Part shown: in pieces, positions 54,150 to 64,000 of the stretch
Layout of the letters: each line of letters starts with the position of its first letter
How positions within the stretch are numbered: position 1 is the stretch's first letter
From: Cyanobium sp.
GTDB taxonomy: Bacteria; Cyanobacteriota; Cyanobacteriia; PCC-6307; Cyanobiaceae
NCBI GenBank assembly: GCA_007135755.1
Contig: SLIG01000007.1
Coordinates: forward strand, 17,466 to 81,465
Length of the DNA stretch: 64,000 bases
Direction: 5' to 3'
Notes under the pieces: model-generated
Databases searched by the model: none
What the model saw: the letters and a program-made list of their open reading frames with translations, nothing else
Told to the model about the DNA's origin: nothing
Position numbers and translations under genes: made by a program

Positions 54150-54440
54150 ATGGCCTCGCGCCCTGCCAGTAGCTCATCCCCGGCCCGTTCTTCATCCTTG
54201 GCCAGCCGCCAGCCCGTCGGCCGCTCACCCGCCCGCCGCTCGCCCACCCGCACCGGGGGCGCCACGGTGCTGGATCTGCTCCAGCCCGGCAGCTTCGTGA
54301 AACTGCGCAACCAGCCCAGGGATCTGCCACCCTTCGAACTGATCCGCTGCCGCGGCGGCCGCTGCTGGGTGCGGCAGCAGGCCTGGGGGGGCGCGGTGCA
54401 GTGGGAGGTGGCACACCAGCGGCTCACCGCAGTGGCCTGA
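54150..54440 (+). CDS. Small hypothetical protein
   Basis: 96-aa ORF. The C-terminal about 55 aa (VLDLLQPGSFVKLRNQPRDLPPFELIRCRGGRCWVRQQAWGGAVQWEV) looks like a real small domain. The N-terminal Ser/Arg/Pro-rich part may be untranslated. Confidence 0.4.
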   Translation: MASRPASSSSPARSSSLASRQPVGRSPARRSPTRTGGATVLDLLQPGSFVKLRNQPRDLPPFELIRCRGGRCWVRQQAWGGAVQWEVAHQRLTAVA

Positions 54441-55896: not shown

Positions 55897-57189
55897 TCAG
55901 TCCGCAAAGATGCGGTAGATCGAGGCGGCGTTGAGCACGGGGCCGAAGGGGGTGACGGCCTGGATCAGGAAGTCGTTGAAGCGGGTCCAGCCGTTGCGGG
56001 GCACCACCACCATGTCGCCATTGTGCAGCGCCGGGTTGGCCGGCGAATCCAGAGCCGCAGAGGGATCGAAGGCAATGCTGCGCACATCGATCTCGCCGCT
56101 GGGCTGCACCCGGATCAGACGGATCTCACGGGCGTTGGCCCGGCCCGGATCCACATCCCCGGCGGCGATCACCGCCGCGGCCAGGGGGCTGTTGGAGCGC
56201 ACCTGCATCAGGCCGGGCTGACGCACCTCACCCACCACCGTCACGCCGATGGTGTCGGGAGCGAAGTTGGAGGCGGCGGTGCGGATCAGCACATCGCTGG
56301 GCTTGGGCACCTCCGAGCGGGCCACCCGCACCATGTCACCGTCGTACAGAAGAGGGTTGACGGTGCTGGTGTTGTTCATCAGCAGCTCCTGGTAGTCGAA
56401 GCGGTACTCCACCACCCGGCCCCCGGGCATGGGACTGGGGCGGGTGAGCACCACCTCGGCCAGGTTGGCCACCGCCGTGATGCCGCCGGCCCGTTGCACC
56501 GCGTCCACCAGGGTGGGCCAACCGGCCGTGGTGATGGTGGTACCGGTGGTGGCCGGTCCGGCCGCCGCCAGGGTGGCTGCCTGGCTGCCCTGGGTGAGGG
56601 TGTAGAAGCCGGGCTTCTGCACCTCCCCCAGCAGGGTCACGCGCACCGGACGCGGCGCCACCAGGTCAAGATACACAAGGGGATTGCGCAGGAAGCGGTC
56701 GTAACCCTCGGTGATCCGCTGCCGGGCCTCATCGAGCGTCAGCCCCCAGACGGGAACCGACCCCAGCCGTGGCAGGTTGATGGTGCCATCCCCGAGCACC
56801 TCAACCTGGGCAGCGTACCCCTCCACCATGAACACCGACATGGTGAGGCGATCGCCCGGGCCGAGGCGGTAGCGCACGCTGCCGATGCCCGGATCCACGC
56901 TGGGCGAGGCGAATCTGGTGGCCGTGGTGACCGCGGGCGGCGAGGCCACCTCCCCCAGAGGGGCTGGTGTCCGCAGCCGGGGACGTTCAGGCGGAGCAGG
57001 GGGTTGGGAGTCGTCGCCAGCGGGATCGGGGATCGGGAAGGCGTCGGGTTGAACTCCCGGCTGAGCGAGGGCTGTGGCGGCGACGCCGAGGGGAACCAGG
57101 GCCACGGGCGTGAGCAGCAGGGCCAGGGATCGCCGGCGCAGGCGGCGGCCACCGGTTCGGTCTGCAGAGTTGAGCGGAGATGAAGACAC
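55897..57189 (-). CDS. Polysaccharide export protein (Wza/KpsD family: Poly_export + SLBB domains)
   Basis: YRLGPGDRLTMSVF...DGTINLPRLGSVPVWGLTLDEARQRI (Poly_export), then VRVTLLGEVQKPGFYTL and IGVTVVGEVRQPGLMQV (SLBB). Signal peptide without a lipobox Cys. Start is GTG 57189 or TTG 57246. Confidence 0.8.
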   Translation of the reverse strand: MSSSPLNSADRTGGRRLRRRSLALLLTPVALVPLGVAATALAQPGVQPDAFPIPDPAGDDSQPPAPPERPRLRTPAPLGEVASPPAVTTATRFASPSVDPGIGSVRYRLGPGDRLTMSVFMVEGYAAQVEVLGDGTINLPRLGSVPVWGLTLDEARQRITEGYDRFLRNPLVYLDLVAPRPVRVTLLGEVQKPGFYTLTQGSQAATLAAAGPATTGTTITTAGWPTLVDAVQRAGGITAVANLAEVVLTRPSPMPGGRVVEYRFDYQELLMNNTSTVNPLLYDGDMVRVARSEVPKPSDVLIRTAASNFAPDTIGVTVVGEVRQPGLMQVRSNSPLAAAVIAAGDVDPGRANAREIRLIRVQPSGEIDVRSIAFDPSAALDSPANPALHNGDMVVVPRNGWTRFNDFLIQAVTPFGPVLNAASIYRIFAD

Positions 57190-57279
57190 GGGGCCTGGGG
57201 GCGGAGGGAACCGGGGCCGGCCGGGCGGAGGGGGACACCAGGGCAAGCGGGCTAATCTTCACGCACCTCCAACCCCATC

Positions 57280-58248
57280 GTGAAGACGAGCGGCGGAAAT
57301 CCGTTGAATCTCTCCGCCGCGATCGCTCTTCCCCCTGATCGGATCCAAGCGGATCTGGCCCCCTTCCGCCTGTTGTGTTCCCAGGGGCTCGATCTCTACC
57401 TGCTTCCCGGCGAGCGCTTCGGGCCCTACGCCGAAGCCGTGGGCGAACTGCGCGAGCTCACCTACCGCCAGCAACTCTCAGGCTCCGGCAACAGCAGGGA
57501 CCTGGACAGCCGTGACCCCCATTACGACCACTTCCTGCTGGTGGAGGCCAGCAGTGGCGAGCTGGCGGGCTCGGCCCGGTTGCAGTTCGTGCCCGCTCAC
57601 CCAACCACTGGACCCGGCGGCCCGGGTGCCGCGCCCCTGCCGGGCAGCCAGCAGTCGTATCTGGAGCACGTGTACCCAGGCATCAAGGCCGACCTGGCCA
57701 GCCAGGGCAACCATCTGGAAATCGGCCGCGTGGCCCTGGCGCCCCGTTTCCAGCGCCAGCCCCACACCTTGATGCTGTTGTTCCGGGGCGGCCTGCAGGC
57801 GGCCGTGAGCGCGGGCTACAGCTCCATCCATGGCCTGGTGTCTTACAACCACTTCGCCTATGGGGAAGCGGTGAACCGGGAGTTTCTGGGCACCCTGCTG
57901 CGCTCCCCCTTCCTGGATGCCTCGTCGCCCCATCCCCAGCCCCGCCATCCGCTGGAGGGCCTGACACCCGATCCGAGGCAGGCAGCAGTGGCCACCATCC
58001 AGGAGCTGGAACTGGACATCCGCCACCGCCTCGATCCAGCCTTCCGGCTGCCCGTGCTGCTGCGCCAGTACATCAATCTGATGGAAGCCCGGGTGCGCAA
58101 CCTGTCGCTGGCCCGCGACTTCAACCAGATCACCGAGATCCTGATGGCCGCCGATCTGGCGCGGATCCCGGCCCGCAGGCTGGCCCACTTCATCGCCTTC
58201 GAGCACGAGCCGATCTACCGGACCTTCAGCTGGTATCGGGGGGGATGA
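57280..58248 (+). CDS. GNAT-fold N-acyltransferase of the OlsB/FeeM (Acetyltransf_5, 'putative hemolysin') family
   Basis: RELTYRQQ...DSRDPHYDHFLLVEASSGELAGSARL and C-terminal LPVLLRQYINLMEARV...DFNQITEILMAADLARIPARRLAHF parallel OlsB-type proteins. GTG start. Confidence 0.7.
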   Translation: MKTSGGNPLNLSAAIALPPDRIQADLAPFRLLCSQGLDLYLLPGERFGPYAEAVGELRELTYRQQLSGSGNSRDLDSRDPHYDHFLLVEASSGELAGSARLQFVPAHPTTGPGGPGAAPLPGSQQSYLEHVYPGIKADLASQGNHLEIGRVALAPRFQRQPHTLMLLFRGGLQAAVSAGYSSIHGLVSYNHFAYGEAVNREFLGTLLRSPFLDASSPHPQPRHPLEGLTPDPRQAAVATIQELELDIRHRLDPAFRLPVLLRQYINLMEARVRNLSLARDFNQITEILMAADLARIPARRLAHFIAFEHEPIYRTFSWYRGG

Positions 58249-58305
58249 GACAGTGCCAGTGAACTGGTACGTTGCCATCCGATCAGGGCGGGGCCGAGGG
58301 ACTTG

Positions 58306-58614
58306 ATGCACGCAGGCCCCGACAACGACAGCCGCGGAGCCTCGTCCCCAGCTCCTGGCGGGGAGAGCCTGCAGGGCCGTCTGATCGAGATCCTGCAGCG
58401 CATCTCCGGTGCCGATCTGGAGCAGATCACACCTGAGGCGCGCCTGATCGAGGACATCGGCATCGATTCCCTGGGCTTCTACGAGATCCTGATCGAGGCC
58501 GACGAGTGCCTCGGCATCAAGATCCGGGAGGAGGACCTGCTGCGCTTCCGCACCGTCGGGGATGTCCAGCGACACCTGGAATCGCTGGAGTCAGGCGATG
58601 GCACGAACAGCTGA
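58306..58614 (+). CDS. Dedicated acyl carrier protein (non-housekeeping)
   Basis: Phosphopantetheine site IEDIGIDSLGFYEILIEADE (DSL). Clearly different from canonical AcpP (DLGADSLDTVELVMALEE). About 35-aa low-complexity N-terminal extension. Confidence 0.8.
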   Translation: MHAGPDNDSRGASSPAPGGESLQGRLIEILQRISGADLEQITPEARLIEDIGIDSLGFYEILIEADECLGIKIREEDLLRFRTVGDVQRHLESLESGDGTNS

Positions 58615-59854
58615 GCGGGTCGCCGTGACCGGCTGGGGAGCGATCACCCCCCTGGCCGGTGATGCCGACGGCACCTGGACCGCCACCCTTGAGGGCCGCA
58701 GCGGCATCCGGGCTCTGCAGGAGGCATGGGCCAGCGACCTGCCCGCCCGCATCGCCGGCTGCGTCGACGCCGATGTGGCCGCAGCCCTCGAACCCCTGCA
58801 ACGCCGGCGCCTGGACCGCTGCTCCCAGCTGGGCCTGCTGGCGGCCCGCCAGGCCTGGAACCAGGCCCGGCCCCACCTGAGCGGCATCGACCCGGCCCGG
58901 GTGGCGGTGGTGATCGGCACGGGCATCGGCGGCCTGGCCACCCTGGAGCGGCAGCACTGCAACCTGCTGGAGGCCGGCCCCGGGCGCGTGAACCCACTCA
59001 CCGTGCCGATGCTGATCCCCAATGCCGCCGCGGGCCAGATCGCCATCGACCTGGGGCTCCACGGCGGCGCCCACACCCCCGTGTCGGCCTGTGCCTCCGG
59101 TGCCGAAGCGCTGCTGCTGGCCCAGATGCTGCTCAACGACGACCGGGCCGACGTGGTGATCGCCGGCGGCAGCGAAGCCCCCGTGAACCGGCTGGGGCTG
59201 GTGGGCTTTGCGGCCATGCGGGCTCTCTCCTGCCGCAATGAGGCCCCGGACCAGGCCTCCCGCCCCTACAGCCGCGACCGCGACGGCTTCGTGCTCTCCG
59301 AGGGTGCCGGGGCCCTGGTGCTGCAACGCCCGGACGACCTGCAGACCCATAATCCCAGACCCCTTGGCTGGCTGCTGGCCAGCGGCAGCAGCAGCGACGG
59401 GCACCACATCGTGGCACCAGAACCGGATGGGCTTAGGGCCAGTGCCGCCATGGCCGATGCCCTGAAAAGGGCCGATCTCGGGGTGGAGGCGCTCAGCTTC
59501 GTGCAGGCCCATGCCACCGGGACGCCGGTGGGCGATCTGGCAGAGGCGCGCGCCCTGGCGCGCACCCTCGGCGCCCGCAGCCACGACCTTCCGGTCACCG
59601 CCCCCAAAGGCCAGCTGGGGCATCTGCTCGGTGCAGCCGGCGCCGTGGAGACGATCCTTGCCCTGCAGGCCCTGCGCCGGGGCCTGGTGCCTCGCTCGTT
59701 GAATGCCGACCCCGTCGACCCGGCCATCGAGCTGGCGGTGGTGCGGGACGCTCCGCTGGCCCTGGCGGGCGGGGAGGCTGCCGGGGAGCGCTATGCCCTC
59801 AAGAACGCCTTCGGCTTCGGCGGCCACAACATCAGTCTGCTGCTGGCGGCCTGA
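58598..59854 (+). CDS. Beta-ketoacyl-ACP synthase II-like condensing enzyme (FabF paralogue)
   Basis: RVAVTGWGAITPLAG, active-site PVSACASGAEAL, HATGTPVGD and GHLLGAAGAVE (Cys-His-His triad), FGFGGHN. Its ATG overlaps the ACP 3' end by 17 nt. Confidence 0.88.
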   Translation: MARTAERVAVTGWGAITPLAGDADGTWTATLEGRSGIRALQEAWASDLPARIAGCVDADVAAALEPLQRRRLDRCSQLGLLAARQAWNQARPHLSGIDPARVAVVIGTGIGGLATLERQHCNLLEAGPGRVNPLTVPMLIPNAAAGQIAIDLGLHGGAHTPVSACASGAEALLLAQMLLNDDRADVVIAGGSEAPVNRLGLVGFAAMRALSCRNEAPDQASRPYSRDRDGFVLSEGAGALVLQRPDDLQTHNPRPLGWLLASGSSSDGHHIVAPEPDGLRASAAMADALKRADLGVEALSFVQAHATGTPVGDLAEARALARTLGARSHDLPVTAPKGQLGHLLGAAGAVETILALQALRRGLVPRSLNADPVDPAIELAVVRDAPLALAGGEAAGERYALKNAFGFGGHNISLLLAA

Positions 59855-61889
59855 GCTCGGCGGCGGCGTAGTGGGCCTGCACCGCCCGCACGAAAGTCTG
59901 GCGGTCGCAGCCCCGGTGGTCGGCGGAGCTCGCCGGCAGGGCCAGATCGCGGGAGCGCCCGCGGCGGCAGTGGATGGTGGCCAGGGGGGCGCTCAGCCGG
60001 GCGAGCAGCAGCCCCAGAGGGCGGTAGAGGTCGCGGCTGGAGGTGCTCAGGCCGTGGTAGCTGAAGGTCCAGGGCACGATCAGAGCCCCGTGTTTCCGGG
60101 CCAGCAGCAGGGCGCTGGCGGAGACGCGCTCACGGATGGGGGTCAGCAGGGAGCCGTTGGGAGCCAGCATCACCTCACCGCGCTCCGCCAGGGTGCGCGA
60201 GGCCCGGTAGAGGGCCGAGGTGCGCGAGCGGCCGTCGCGGTGGTCCATCAGGCCATGGCCGGCGTTGGCCGCTGAGGCCGAGAACCAGGGCATGATCCGG
60301 CTGAGGTGCAGGTTGGCCGTGGTGATGCTGGGCAGCCGCAGCACGCCCTGCACCACCAGCACATCGGCGGGGTGCTCATGGTTCCAGATGTGCACCAGGG
60401 GGATCCCCTCCGGTTCGCTGGGGTGGCTGTCATCCACCACCACGCTGATGCCCAGGGCCCGCAGGCCCACCTGAGCGGTCGCCACGAGTAACCGGGCAGC
60501 CAGCCGGCGCCGGCCCAGGGCCAGGGCCAGCAGCTGCAGGCCGTAGACCACGAAGTAGGAAACCCCCCAGAACAGGCGGGACAGCACCCGCAGGGGCAGC
60601 AACAGGGGAGAACTGGCTGACGCCTGGCCGGGGGCTGGCAACCGCGGCCGTGGCGCCAGCCGGCGCGCCTCCGGGCCGATCGGAAACGTGGTGCGGAAGG
60701 GAAAGTCGCCGTCGAAATTGCCATTCACCTGGGTGGAGGTCACCAGGTGGTCGTAGAAGCGGTAGAAGAGCGGCCGGTCGCTGGTGTGGGGCTCGCGCCA
60801 GAACTGATCCAGGGGTTGCTGGTCGGTGAGGCCTGGCAGGTTGTAGAAGGTCTGGCCCATGACCTTGGTGGGCACGGCGTGGTACAGCGCCTGCAGGCCC
60901 ACGGTGCTGTTCACGGTCACCACCCCCCGGCAGGTGCGCAGGAAACGGCTCAGGGCGCCGTCGTGGAAATAGTGCACCCGGCCCTCCACCCCGTAGCGGC
61001 GGGCCAGCAGCCGGATCAGCCGACCGTAGTGGTTGTAGCCGCGATCGCGAGGATGGTGCTTGAAAGCCAGATGATCGGAGGCATGGGCATGGCGAGCGAA
61101 GGAGCTGATCACGTCCTCGATGAAGTCGTGCATGCCCCGATAGGGCGACCCCAGCTGCACCTGGGAATCGCTGGACACCTGCAGCACGGCCAGGAAATAG
61201 GAGAGATGCTCCAGCAGACGCCGCTTGAGCCCCCGCTCCTGCCAGCGGTAGAGCCAGTAGCGCCAGCTGCCGCGCAGCTGGCACCAGAGAAACCGCGGCG
61301 AGGGTTGAAGCTTGTGCTCGCCCTCGATGATCGGGTAGCGGGTGGTGGCGTGCTGGATGAAGGTGGGGGCCTTCCAGAGCTTGCGCCAGCGCCAGCCCGG
61401 ATCCAGGGTGCCCTGGGGGAGAGCATCCACGGGCGGCAGCTGGCGGTAGAAGGCCACGGGCTGGTTGAGGTTGGAGCGGGCATTCACCCGCTCGCGCTCC
61501 AGGGTCACGTAGTTGGGACGGATGTAGCCCAGCTCGAACACCCAGGCCTCGATGCCGGCGCTGCGCGCCTCCTCGATGGCGATGCGGTGAGGAATGATGA
61601 AATCGCCATACATGAAGATGTGGCGGATGCCGCGCTCGCGGATCAGCTCGCGCACGAACGGCCGCCAGTCCTGCATCGAACCGCTGTAGGGCACCCGCAC
61701 CTCCCGCGGGAACCCGAACTCGCGGAGGGGAAAACTCACCTTGGTGACCGGGATGCCACAGCCGCGCAGGTAGCGGCAGAAGCGGGCGAAGAACAGCCCG
61801 ATCGGGCCCATCAGCAGCAGTACCGGGCCGTCGATCCGCACCTGAACCAACTGCACCGGCGCCGGAGCGGGGGCCCGTTCTGTGGTCAA
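59832..61889 (-). CDS. Fusion protein: KpsS-like capsule Kdo-transferase domain + TM linker + PlsC/OlsA-like lysolipid acyltransferase domain
   Basis: N-terminus LLLMGPIGLFF...MYGDFIIPHRIAIEEARSAGIEAWVFELGYIRPNYVTLERERVNARSNL parallels E. coli KpsS (LLLQGPMGPFF...FEEGYLRP...GVNA.S.L). Hydrophobic segment LFWGVSYFVVYGLQLLALAL. C-terminus has NHEHPAD (HX4D), then LAPNGS and IVPW. Confidence 0.8.
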   Translation of the reverse strand: MTTERAPAPAPVQLVQVRIDGPVLLLMGPIGLFFARFCRYLRGCGIPVTKVSFPLREFGFPREVRVPYSGSMQDWRPFVRELIRERGIRHIFMYGDFIIPHRIAIEEARSAGIEAWVFELGYIRPNYVTLERERVNARSNLNQPVAFYRQLPPVDALPQGTLDPGWRWRKLWKAPTFIQHATTRYPIIEGEHKLQPSPRFLWCQLRGSWRYWLYRWQERGLKRRLLEHLSYFLAVLQVSSDSQVQLGSPYRGMHDFIEDVISSFARHAHASDHLAFKHHPRDRGYNHYGRLIRLLARRYGVEGRVHYFHDGALSRFLRTCRGVVTVNSTVGLQALYHAVPTKVMGQTFYNLPGLTDQQPLDQFWREPHTSDRPLFYRFYDHLVTSTQVNGNFDGDFPFRTTFPIGPEARRLAPRPRLPAPGQASASSPLLLPLRVLSRLFWGVSYFVVYGLQLLALALGRRRLAARLLVATAQVGLRALGISVVVDDSHPSEPEGIPLVHIWNHEHPADVLVVQGVLRLPSITTANLHLSRIMPWFSASAANAGHGLMDHRDGRSRTSALYRASRTLAERGEVMLAPNGSLLTPIRERVSASALLLARKHGALIVPWTFSYHGLSTSSRDLYRPLGLLLARLSAPLATIHCRRGRSRDLALPASSADHRGCDRQTFVRAVQAHYAAAELRPPAAD

Positions 61890-61944
61890 CGCGGTGTCCT
61901 GAGGGGCAAGGCCTGGGCCAACTCTGCCATCCCAGGCAAGGGGC

Positions 61945-63981
61945 TCAGCGCCGCCGCAGCCGGCCCCAGTGGCGGAAGATGCGCTGGCGCAGGCTGAGGG
62001 GCACAGGCGGTGCCGAGCGCCAGGCCAGCAGCTCTTCGATCGCCTGCTCCGGCTCGATGAACAGGCCGCTGTGGCGGCTCACATAGCGGGGATAGTCGAT
62101 GAGGGCGCCATGCACCAGGGCATCGAGGCTGAGGCGGCGGCCCCGCCGCTCACAGCGCAGGCGGTCGTGGCTGAGGCCCCAGCCGGCATAGAAGGGCAGG
62201 CCCCAGGTGTGCACCTCGAGCTCCCGCAGCAGGGCCTCGAAGCCGGCGATCGAGGTGAGCACGTGCAGGGCGTCGATCTGGGTGAACAGCTGCTGGATCG
62301 CGGCATCGGCCACCAGCTCGTCACACCAGTCACGGGCTGCCGCCTCATTCGAGCCCGGCCGGCACAGCCCCGCCAACACGTCCGGGTGGGGCTTGTAGAG
62401 GAGGTAGGCCGCGGGCTCGGCGGCCCGCACCGCCTGCAGCAGGCCCAGGTTGGTGCGCACGCCTGGGGCGCCCAGCCTGATCGAGGCATCCGATTCCACC
62501 TGCCCCACCACCAGCACCACCCGCCGAACCCCGGCCGGTCGGAGCCAGGGGGGCGCCTGGAGGTTGTATTTGGTGATCGCCTCCGCCACCAGCCGCCGGC
62601 GCAGCGCCCGCGCCCGCCGCAGCTGCTGGTCGTTCCAGTGGCCGGTGGCCAGGCCATGTTCCAGATCACTGGGGCCACCGGCGTCGTAGTAGATGCCGCG
62701 CCGGTCGATCACCCAGGAGATCGGGTCGATCAGGTCGGCCCCCAGCCCCACCGAGCGCAGGAAACCATCCTCGGCATGGAGCAGCGGCAATGCCCGGCGG
62801 CGGGCCGCCTCCAGCAGCCGCGGGCGGGCCCGCCGGCCCCACACCGCCAGGGCCTGGGCATGGCGGTGTGGGGCCTGCCACTGGAACCGAAAGCGCAGCC
62901 GGCTGCCGGCCAGGAAGCGGCGCAGCACCCGTTGCTTCCAGGGGGTGAAGCCGAAAGCCTCGATGCGCTCCGGCAGCCGGCCCCGCAGCCTGCGCTGCAG
63001 GCCGATGGCCGCCACCAGCTCCTCCACCTGGCAGCGTTGGTGGCGGTGGGGATCCACATACACGGCGTAGTCCACCAGGGCGGCGTGGACCAGATCGGCC
63101 AGCTGGCGGGGAGCGGCGGCGGCGCGGCGCGGCGGCGGCGGCAGCGCGTCGCGGCTAAGGCCCCAGCCGGCATAGAAGGGCATGCCGAAGCAGTGCACCG
63201 GCCGGCCCCAGAGCAGGGCCTCGAAGCCCAGCTGAGAGGTGACGACGTACACCGCCTTGGCCCGCTCGAGCAGGGCCGCGGGATGGCCGCCACTGGCCTC
63301 GAGCCGGACGCGCGGATGCTGCAGTTGCCGGGCCTGGAAATGGCCGCGCTTTCGGCCGCGCACCACATCCGGATGGGTCTTGACGACCACCAGCCGGCCA
63401 GGATGGTCGGCCAGCGCGGTGGCGAGCATCGCCTCGAAGCTGGCGGCCGTGGCCCCGCCCAGGCCGATCGAGAGGTCGCCGGCGGTCTGATCGACCACCA
63501 GCACGAAGGGCTCCGCCGGCACCGGCGCCTCGCGACTGCCGTTGTACTTGCTCACCCGCTGCTCACACCACAGGCCGCGGATGGCCTCGGCCCGCTGCAG
63601 CTGGGCGGGAGTGCGGGGGGCGGCGATCAGGCGCTCCAGGCGGCAGGGGCGGCCAGCGTCGTAGTAGATGCCGGCGTCATCGAGCACCAGGCCCAGGGGA
63701 GCACTGTCGGGGCCCAGATCCAGGGAGCGCAGGAAGGCGTCCTCGCAGCGCCAGAGCGGCAGCTGCCGCCGGCGGGCCAGCCGCTCGGCCAGACGGGCGC
63801 TGGGTTTGCGTCCCCAGGCCAGCAGGGCATCGAGGTCGGCCCCGGCGCAGCGGGCCGCGCCGGTCACCAGCCGGTGGTCGGCCAGCAGGGCGGCCAAAGT
63901 GCGATGGCGCAGCATGCCGGCGGCCGGCAGACCCAGGCGGGCCGCTGGGAGAGGAGAGGCCAAGGGCGAGTCGGGGAGCAC
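61945..63981 (-). CDS. kpsC: KpsC-like capsule polysaccharide protein with two tandem Kdo-transferase modules
   Basis: N half has CEDAFLRSLDLG...DDAGIYYDAGRPCRLE...MPFYAGWGLS. C half has AEDGFLRSVGLG...DRRGIYYDAGGPSDLE...LPFYAGWGLS. 678 aa, as in E. coli KpsC. GTG start 19 nt from the window end. Confidence 0.85.
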   Translation of the reverse strand: MLPDSPLASPLPAARLGLPAAGMLRHRTLAALLADHRLVTGAARCAGADLDALLAWGRKPSARLAERLARRRQLPLWRCEDAFLRSLDLGPDSAPLGLVLDDAGIYYDAGRPCRLERLIAAPRTPAQLQRAEAIRGLWCEQRVSKYNGSREAPVPAEPFVLVVDQTAGDLSIGLGGATAASFEAMLATALADHPGRLVVVKTHPDVVRGRKRGHFQARQLQHPRVRLEASGGHPAALLERAKAVYVVTSQLGFEALLWGRPVHCFGMPFYAGWGLSRDALPPPPRRAAAAPRQLADLVHAALVDYAVYVDPHRHQRCQVEELVAAIGLQRRLRGRLPERIEAFGFTPWKQRVLRRFLAGSRLRFRFQWQAPHRHAQALAVWGRRARPRLLEAARRRALPLLHAEDGFLRSVGLGADLIDPISWVIDRRGIYYDAGGPSDLEHGLATGHWNDQQLRRARALRRRLVAEAITKYNLQAPPWLRPAGVRRVVLVVGQVESDASIRLGAPGVRTNLGLLQAVRAAEPAAYLLYKPHPDVLAGLCRPGSNEAAARDWCDELVADAAIQQLFTQIDALHVLTSIAGFEALLRELEVHTWGLPFYAGWGLSHDRLRCERRGRRLSLDALVHGALIDYPRYVSRHSGLFIEPEQAIEELLAWRSAPPVPLSLRQRIFRHWGRLRRR

Positions 63982-64000
63982 CCGACGAGGGCTGGCGGGA

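Follow-up and report, generated by a model that had tools for sequence, protein, structure and literature searches.

Group 2 capsules of Escherichia coli and Neisseria are produced with the KpsMTED and KpsC/KpsS proteins and carry poly-beta-Kdo on (lyso)phosphatidylglycerol, and the VexE-made lipid terminus of the Vi antigen is required for its retention at the surface of Salmonella Typhi (PMC8760489). According to PMC4881576, the rkp-1 region of Sinorhizobium probably supplies a dedicated lipid on which a K antigen with a pseudaminic-acid derivative is carried. The consulted part of a 2026 aminolipid review (PMC12971839) sets out the OlsB plus OlsA/OlsF pathway logic and the free hydroxyl that serine-glycine-type head groups provide, and it reports no aminolipid from picocyanobacteria. 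For cyanobacteria, passages of an earlier phylum-wide survey describe a confined distribution of KpsS/KpsC (PMC4594306). In the consulted passages of PMC10119275, Doré et al. (2023) describe marine Synechococcus clusters "most similar to E. coli group 2/3 kps", and an enrichment of these capsule clusters in parts of the ocean that are poor in N and P. Two gene groups of the island Syn_GI125 are listed there: Syn-eCAG_008 (kpsD, an acyl-CoA N-acyltransferase, a PP-binding acyl carrier protein (ACP), fabF2, kpsS, kpsC, neuA and glycosyltransferases) and Syn-eCAG_009 (DUF1997, kpsM, kpsE and kpsT). Here we analyzed 64,000 nucleotides of Cyanobium sp. DNA (GCA_007135755.1, contig SLIG01000007.1, positions 17,466-81,465 of the forward strand; the whole stretch is called the window), in which six genes at 55897-63981 join kps-type capsule functions to fatty-acyl enzymes. 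The author of an earlier note on this DNA knew of no described equivalent in cyanobacteria. This was wrong, since the block is Syn-eCAG_008 of Doré et al., with kpsM/E/T in Syn-eCAG_009. The cluster is therefore already known; what appears to be new is its conserved lipid module, composed of a KpsS protein, an LPLAT acyltransferase and a GNAT N-acyltransferase. A fusion of KpsS with LPLAT, or the anchor hypothesis developed below, was not found in the searched passages of PMC10119275, PMC4594306 and PMC12971839.

We propose that a ~30-kb ATP-binding cassette (ABC)-transporter-dependent capsule locus of the kps type (E. coli group 2-like) is inserted beside purB, that the six genes form its conserved end for anchoring and export, and that its lipid acceptor is made by the locus itself. 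We give this reading an even chance of being correct. Within it, the part according to which the acceptor would be made or tailored by locus-encoded acyltransferases coupled to KpsS is well supported by the comparison of genomes. The features on which the proposal is based are the following, where KAS is a beta-ketoacyl-ACP synthase, Kdo is 3-deoxy-D-manno-octulosonate and ORF is an open reading frame:

55897-57189, minus strand: KpsD/Wza-type outer-membrane polysaccharide exporter (ORF open to 57246; Poly_export 1.3e-18, SLBB 1.2e-16, SLBB_2 5.5e-15)
57280-58248, plus strand: GNAT N-acyltransferase resembling OlsB and the C-terminal part of OlsF, 322 amino acids, divergent from kpsD (Acetyltransf_5 1e-10)
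58306-58614, plus strand: dedicated ACP, 102 amino acids, with a DSL phosphopantetheine site (ORF from 58303; PP-binding 4.2e-11)
58598-59854, plus strand: FabF2-type KAS II paralogue, 418 amino acids (ORF from 58562; ketoacyl-synt 1.3e-46, Ketoacyl-synt_C 4.2e-30)
59832-60452, minus strand: LPLAT/PlsC-type acyltransferase catalytic domain, residues 480-685 of the fusion protein (PF01553 6.7e-6, residues 493-608)
60453-60602, minus strand: domain linker with two long amphipathic/hydrophobic helices, residues 430-478, a PlsC-type two-helix membrane motif
60711-61889, minus strand: domain resembling KpsS, a retaining ulosonic-acid (beta-Kdo) transferase; residues 1-393 of the 685-amino acid fusion (Capsule_synth 8.8e-58)
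61945-63981, minus strand: two-module KpsC, 656-678 amino acids (start at 63915 or 63981; Capsule_synth 2.8e-76 in four stretches)

The N-terminal part of the fusion protein matched the KpsS model NF050054 at 5.3e-84, with residues 22-392 covering model positions 14-387 of 390. With 283 bits against an equivalog cut-off of 600 the domain is a divergent member of the family, and the FKHHPRDRGY motif and further motifs are invariant in the family alignment. The C-terminal part carries an HX4D motif, NHEHPAD (60363-60383), and a motif III, APNGS (residues 576-580). A PDB search with the whole-fusion sequence gave no match, and success came with the profile of the C-terminal domain alone, which yielded a single match, the Thermotoga maritima PlsC (5KYM, 7.3e-6). 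This alignment spans the two-helix membrane motif (5KYM residues 8-60), HX4D and motif III. In an AlphaFold2 model based on an 11-sequence alignment, residues 430-680 reached a predicted local distance difference test (pLDDT) score of 82-93, with helices at 430-457 and 461-478 (~90) followed by an alpha/beta domain. Foldseek with the model of the whole fusion returned mostly GT-B folds (UDP-N-acetylglucosamine 2-epimerases and a polysialyltransferase) and was uninformative on the LPLAT half. The named matches of the LPLAT domain were glycerolipid acyltransferases, namely AGPAT (TIGR00530, 17-34 bits against a cut-off of 103) and the PlsC of 5KYM. The OlsA model NF052553 was matched weakly (6.7e-4), and by a 261-amino acid PlsC-only protein (P0148) alone.

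The NHxxxxD motif is kept in 105 of the 117 full-length cluster representatives, and the other 12 form one marine subclade. In a marine Synechococcus locus of this subclade (L092, 8001-10673), HX4D has been lost from the fused domain, and a same-strand gene follows that codes for a 250-amino acid PlsC with intact NHENPLD and APNGS. An extended match or a spacing like that of L092, the locus that was read directly, suggests a separate PlsC also in L033, L034, L036 and L082. Since a separate intact PlsC follows the decayed domain, we argue that the acyltransferase activity, and not a mere membrane tether, is under selection. The catalytic motifs of the LPLAT domain are conserved, and addition of a second acyl chain would be the chemistry expected from its family.

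The GNAT scored above the Pfam gathering threshold for Acetyltransf_5, and its sole match among the NCBIfam models was the C-terminal N-acyltransferase half of OlsF (residues 319-569, 4.3e-11). The same half was matched by the GNATs of two further kinds of loci described below, the type B loci (3.9e-13) and an unfused relative (~5e-11), the latter of which additionally matched OlsB (2.3e-5) and GlsB (1.7e-4). The AlphaFold2 model of the window protein (pLDDT 81) led Foldseek to GNAT folds, with FeeM (2G0B) at rank 3-4 and the acyl-homoserine lactone synthases EsaI and MesI close behind; FeeM, EsaI and MesI belong to the acyl-ACP-using branch of the GNAT superfamily. With the GNAT profile, matches among PDB sequences were at chance level only. 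Membership in the OlsB-type N-acyltransferases, as judged from these comparisons, would therefore hold at superfamily level only. An assignment of the acyltransferases to ornithine-lipid synthesis was dropped, given an OlsF score of 42 bits against a cut-off of 620 and the weak OlsA match.

The distribution of the fusion was analyzed with HMMER over 1.84 billion representative proteins and with a scan of 185,579 species genomes. The two-domain KpsS::LPLAT architecture was found in four clusters of the former set; the other matches were KpsS proteins of ~400 amino acids or different fusions. The genome scan gave 126 matches, of which the best 80 were all contigs of Cyanobium, Synechococcus, Vulcanococcus or Prochlorococcaceae. 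Cultured carriers are Cyanobium NS01, NIES-981, CH-040 and ATX 6A2, and Synechococcus M16CYN and PH41509. Picocyanobacterial contigs with the locus were also observed in species-representative metagenome-assembled genomes titled Bradyrhizobium ivorense (L016), Mesorhizobium carmichaelinearum (L040), Pseudanabaena sp. (L069), Bifidobacterium breve (L073) and Sphingobacterium thalpophilum (L076). The locus is flanked there by purB, glnB and tlyA, and these five are evidently mislabelled or contaminated bins.

Among the related loci with enough flank for the gene in question, KpsC lies directly upstream of the fusion in 70 of 70, the GNAT no more than 2.4 kb downstream in 67 of 67, and KpsD downstream in 59 of 59, in agreement with the co-localization that the earlier note had expected. 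Gene order and orientation are invariant in the 67 loci, over 39-97% identity, two chromosomal sites and G+C contents of 26-70%. Two types of loci can be told apart. Type A, which includes the window, is located at purB, contains the ACP and KAS genes, and has NeuB, DUF6716 and sulfotransferase genes for its polymer. Type B, from freshwater Cyanobium (~55% identity), occupies another genomic site without ACP/KAS, has GT2, PhyH and GT1 polymer genes, and carries intact KpsM, KpsT and KpsE (KpsE 6e-66) adjoining KpsC. Since the GNAT is kept across polymer types, it belongs to the conserved anchor/export set rather than to the serotype-specific set. A DUF1997 protein (L086:7273-7848, minus strand) is conserved beside KpsC/KpsM in type B loci; a DUF1997 homologue was not found in the 20 kb to the right of the window.

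In the most divergent fusion (39% identity, on a 45%-G+C contig), KpsC is again upstream and a convergent GNAT downstream. Furthermore, marine contigs of 26% G+C (L097 and L098; Tara/JGI) carry the triad in unfused form: KpsC, KpsS (410 amino acids), PlsC (244 amino acids, NHDNPLD, 4-nucleotide overlap), a convergent GNAT (284 amino acids), a GT1-like protein and KpsF (1.5e-56), in an order that resembles picocyanobacterial type B. This unfused locus is a Rosetta-stone case for the fusion. P0126, the nearest KpsS from outside the clade, belongs to a conventional kps locus in whose vicinity no acyltransferase is encoded. An apparent split gene in L093 (P0075) was disregarded as the product of a frameshift-ridden long-read assembly. 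The functional link between Kdo-transferase homologues and acyltransferases, suggested by the earlier note, is strongly reinforced by the synteny, by the fusion itself and by the unfused relative.

The ACP had been called private in the earlier note, and this holds for the ACP and KAS pair. None of the cut-offs for housekeeping AcpP is reached by the ACP (39 bits with TIGR00517, which requires 70.45). Its nearest solved relative is the mycobacterial AcpM (1.9e-14), with E. coli AcpP matched at 9e-4 only. The KAS passed the PRK07314 subfamily threshold and reached 417 bits with TIGR03150 fabF, against a cut-off of 493.75; its Cys-His-His triad is intact (ACAsG, HaTGT and GHLLGAAG in alignments to 1J3N and 1E5M), and it is closer to the FabF of Thermus than to that of Synechocystis. 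In Cyanorak the marine orthologue is named fabF2. The ACP and KAS genes are therefore an additional, dedicated paralogue set. They do not form a constant part of the system, as the pair is present in 39 of the 67 loci and absent from 28. In cyanobacteria acpP and fabF are often adjacent. A housekeeping acpP-fabF identity of the pair was rejected on account of the sub-equivalog scores, the AcpM and Thermus affinities, the loci that lack the pair, and the Cyanorak name.

The coordinates of the six ORFs were confirmed, and their third-position G+C is high as in real genes. All six domain assignments made in the earlier note, and with them the kps-type nature of the locus (KpsS, two-module KpsC and KpsD homologues), were upheld by Pfam, NCBIfam, PDB and AlphaFold2 analyses. 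The two halves of KpsC match the solved KpsC modules, residues 19-362 the N-module (6MGB) and residues 342-654 the C-module (6MGD), each at ~1e-61. The starts of KpsD, ACP, KAS and KpsC were corrected from gene calls on contigs identical to the window, which are present in ENA, NCBI and Logan assemblies, and are probable rather than certain. KpsD was called there both as 350 and as 430 amino acids; its start is probably 57189, by which the signal peptide RRLRRRSLALLLTPVALVPLGVAATALA|QP is retained. The 3′ end of the ACP gene overlaps the KAS start by 17 nucleotides, and the convergent KAS and fusion genes overlap by 23 nucleotides at their 3′ ends. The window has a G+C content of ~70%, and the closest species-representative genome is Cyanobium sp. 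PLM2.Bin73, whose fusion protein is 97% identical. As had been claimed, purB lies directly to the left of the six genes, and the left flank otherwise consists of core genes (the atp operon, apcEABC, ftsW, ccdA, ccs1, queF, glnB and tlyA). Between tlyA and purB there is an ORF for a Ser/Ala/Arg-rich 96-amino acid protein (54150-54440, plus strand) without a Pfam match; it is probably a real small gene, because 53-90% identity is kept in most related loci.

A tblastn search of the window with the type B proteins detected no kpsM/T/E. The earlier note had supposed that genes for export and CMP-sugars might be found past base 64000, and this proved right: on the contigs identical to the window (L001 and L089), from which the right flank was read, a CTP_transf_3 gene begins ~330 bp past the end, and KpsE and KpsM follow ~16-19 kb further to the right. 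The order rightward is a CMP-sugar synthetase, three DUF6716 genes, a NeuB fusion, two sulfotransferases, an insertion sequence (IS) remnant, a GT2, KpsE, KpsM, an 88-amino acid ORF and a KpsT-like gene. The CMP-sugar synthetase is divergent, with PseF as the best match (6e-31) and KdsB as a weaker one (2.5e-11). The tandem DUF6716 genes (L001:3152-6809, minus strand, ~1-4 kb past the window) code for putative glycosyltransferases of 429, 352 and 438 amino acids that gave no NCBIfam or PDB sequence match. They are weakly related to Capsule_synth, as the KpsS domain matches DUF6716 at 7e-4, and are candidate CMP-ulosonic-acid transferases that might polymerize the capsule.

The NeuB fusion (761 amino acids; L001:831-3116, minus strand, equal to L089:7719-10004, plus strand; ~4-6 kb past the window) is composed of an N-terminal CBS pair (KpsF/GutQ-like, 1e-6), a NeuB synthase domain (1.3e-90) and a C-terminal AP_endonuc_2 TIM barrel, and is 70-92% identical among type A loci. 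Because NeuC and the Pse/Leg amino-sugar genes are absent nearby, the ulosonic acid that it makes could be non-aminated (Kdn-like) or unusual in some other respect. The adjacent sulfotransferases (L089:10001-11640, plus strand), a Sulfotransfer_2 protein (JGI "dermatan 4-sulfotransferase 1") and a Sulfotransfer_1/3 protein, imply a sulfated capsule polymer. An HTH_Tnp_1 transposase fragment beside the GT2 of ~46% G+C (L089:12223-14347), within a locus of 65-70% G+C, is the mark of DNA that was recently inserted into the variable portion of the island. At the same position Cyanobium CH-040 (L095) has Glyco_transf_61, a methyltransferase and dTDP-sugar enzymes instead. The KpsE-like protein (449 amino acids, L089:16398-17747) matched TIGR01010 at 1.4e-46, and a KpsM-like protein of the same genome matched NF050053 at 2.4e-26. 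The KpsT-like gene (285 amino acids, L089:18948-19805, minus strand) lies ~19-20 kb past the window, and its product is 25% identical (8e-24) to the intact KpsT of type B. KpsF was not found within ~30 kb of the window locus.

On the reading that we favor, the GNAT would take a fatty acyl chain, probably 3-hydroxyacyl, from an ACP and attach it to a head group that bears an amino function. In type A loci FabF2 would synthesize or elongate this chain on the private ACP, and in other loci a housekeeping acyl-ACP would serve. The LPLAT domain, held at the cytoplasmic face of the membrane by its two-helix motif, would add a second acyl chain in the manner of OlsB followed by OlsA, and the KpsS domain of the same polypeptide would glycosylate the resulting lipid with a first Kdo or Kdo-like residue. 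The two-module KpsC would extend the linker, and the flank genes (CMP-nonulosonate synthetase, NeuB fusion, DUF6716 proteins and sulfotransferases) would build a presumably sulfated acidic polymer on this primer, which the KpsM, KpsE, KpsT-like and KpsD homologues would export. We only infer the aminolipid identity of the anchor, its phosphorus-free nature and the use of Kdo rather than another ulosonic acid. That the capsule is anchored on a purpose-built, phosphorus-free N-acyl (acyloxyacyl) aminolipid or a similar lipid, produced by the OlsB-like enzyme and the KpsS-fused LPLAT, is put forward as a tentative possibility.

Several observations weigh against a locus-made aminolipid anchor. 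The scores of both acyltransferases lie far below the curated equivalog cut-offs, as given above for OlsF and AGPAT, so that their substrates, including the GNAT acceptor, are not assignable by homology. The ACP/KAS pair is an accessory, because 28 of the 67 loci do without it. Ornithine-type aminolipids have no hydroxyl for glycosylation, and hence the head group would have to contain serine, carry a hydroxyl of another kind or be an amino sugar. KdsA and KdsB were not observed in the locus, whose synthase is of the NeuB type, and since its CMP-synthetase is PseF-like the sugar may come from a donor other than CMP-Kdo. In the KpsT-like protein, Walker A (GANGAGKST is replaced by SVNNYEAQT), the ABC signature and Walker B are lost; either it is a nucleotide-binding domain without function, or another gene elsewhere encodes the active ATPase. 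Cyanobacteria make phosphatidylglycerol. This lipid is the acceptor of the classical KpsS (PMC8760489). As to the donor, the KpsS family is known to include transferases of pseudaminic acid (PMC12887879).

Remodelling of phosphatidylglycerol is accordingly the main rival to an acceptor built by the locus. Here KpsS would place Kdo on canonical (lyso)phosphatidylglycerol, LPLAT would only re- or transacylate it, supplying or repairing the acceptor or controlling its lyso/diacyl state, and the GNAT would act elsewhere near the reducing end. We know of no explanation for the lyso state of the lipid in classical capsules, for which such an LPLAT could account. KpsS and KpsC are homologous to phosphatidylglycerol-dependent enzymes (PMC8760489), and the significant named matches of LPLAT, AGPAT and 5KYM, are all glycerolipid acyltransferases. 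Remodelling leaves unexplained, however, why a GNAT of the OlsB/OlsF/GlsB type is present in all 67 loci and in the unfused triad, and conventional kps loci, including that of the nearest outside KpsS relative, do without such enzymes. We regard it as rather doubtful.

Alternatively, the GNAT could attach a 3-hydroxy fatty acid to the nitrogen of an amino sugar, LPLAT could add a secondary or second chain, and KpsS and KpsC could add Kdo to a terminus resembling lipid A or that of Vi, much as Kdo is placed on acylated glucosamine. The diacyl-N-acetylhexosamine (diacyl-HexNAc) terminus of the Vi antigen depends on the dedicated acyltransferase VexE (PMC8760489), acyloxyacyl logic is shared with lipid A (PMC12971839), and the GNAT fold does not fix the acceptor. 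Yet Vi-type systems have no kpsSC, both of which are present in the window locus, the family-level matches of the GNAT are solely the amino-acid N-acyltransferases OlsF, OlsB and GlsB, and the genes that the locus types have in common include none for making an amino sugar. A terminus of this kind is therefore improbable.

Slightly less probable still is that the GNAT, ACP, KAS and LPLAT acylate the polysaccharide and not its anchor, for example with N-3-hydroxybutyryl groups on a nonulosonic acid or with O-acyl groups. Nonulosonic acids often bear unusual N-acyl groups, type A loci encode a NeuB-type synthesis of such sugars, and KAS with ACP could yield a short 3-oxo- or 3-hydroxyacyl unit. 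Nevertheless, GNAT and LPLAT are kept in loci with wholly different polymer genes and no NeuB, ACP and KAS are the dispensable parts, and LPLAT has a membrane-embedded two-helix motif and shares its polypeptide with the enzyme that starts the chain, not with a polymer glycosyltransferase. Finally, it is very improbable that the acyl genes serve to produce a free aminolipid of the membrane that has nothing to do with the capsule, and that they are mere neighbours of the kps genes on Syn_GI125, an island that is flexible and has an IS remnant and a low-G+C GT2 nearby, as LPLAT is covalently fused to KpsS and order and orientation are invariant in 67 of 67 loci at two chromosomal sites and over 26-70% G+C.

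The KpsS-LPLAT-GNAT module provides a direct genetic handle on the question where the lipid acceptor of ABC-transporter-dependent capsules comes from and how it is selected, including the lyso terminus of the classical ones. If the anchor is indeed such an aminolipid, it would join Kdo-(lyso)phosphatidylglycerol and the diacyl-HexNAc of Vi as a third kind of lipid terminus for capsules, and would be the first glycosylated aminolipid primer. It could spare scarce phosphorus and the phosphatidylglycerol pool that is essential for the photosystems. Picocyanobacteria are among the most abundant phototrophs, and a custom anchor with a sulfated nonulosonic-acid capsule would bear on phage and grazer recognition, aggregation, carbon export and phosphorus economy. 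The idea is testable, because several cultured strains carry the fusion.

As regards Syn-eCAG_008/009, the marine Synechococcus loci retrieved here are syntenic with the window at 63-72% identity, and the window represents a high-G+C Cyanobium lineage. The consulted passages of PMC10119275 treat the genes only as a niche-associated capsule gene set, with kpsS annotated only as a capsular polysaccharide export protein, and the OlsB/OlsA logic was not found in them. As in the group 2 systems of E. coli and Neisseria, the locus has a full-length KpsS homologue, a two-module KpsC and a KpsD exporter, with KpsE and KpsM in the window genome and a full KpsMTE in type B, and it combines a conserved anchor/export set with a variable polymer region. 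It differs from them in the fusion of KpsS to LPLAT and in the adjacent OlsB-like GNAT, as classical loci contain no lipid-making genes. Furthermore, kpsF and kpsU/kdsB are missing from the window locus, its KpsT-like protein is without ATPase motifs, and it is divided into convergent and divergent operons beside purB.

Like the Vi system, the proposed pathway would combine ABC-transporter-dependent export with a lipid terminus that departs from the standard one and is the work of an acyltransferase from the capsule locus, whereas Vi loci contain neither kpsS nor kpsC and VexE is a different acyltransferase with tetratricopeptide repeats. In Sinorhizobium rkp-1, RkpA is a protein like fatty-acid or polyketide synthases (FAS/PKS), RkpF an ACP, and RkpJ a KpsS-like protein. 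This region, compared here by its description only, likewise places fatty-acyl machinery and a dedicated ACP beside a KpsS homologue; unlike the window, it uses a type I FAS/PKS-like megasynthase and the oxoamine-synthase-like RkpG, with no KpsS fusion. In the NodF/NodE and AcpXL/FabF-XL pairs of rhizobia, a specialized ACP and its own FabF paralogue feed one dedicated surface or signal molecule that contains lipid. Their product differs, and the pair of the window type is accessory (39 of 67 loci). Finally, the locus resembles the OlsB plus OlsA, OlsF and GlsB plus GlsA systems in pairing an Acetyltransf_5-type N-acyltransferase with an HX4D LPLAT, and OlsF gives a precedent for fusing both acyltransferase activities in one protein. 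In contrast to these systems, to whose models its proteins score far below the equivalog level, the LPLAT is here joined to a glycosyltransferase and not to the N-acyltransferase, and the head group would have to offer a site for glycosylation.

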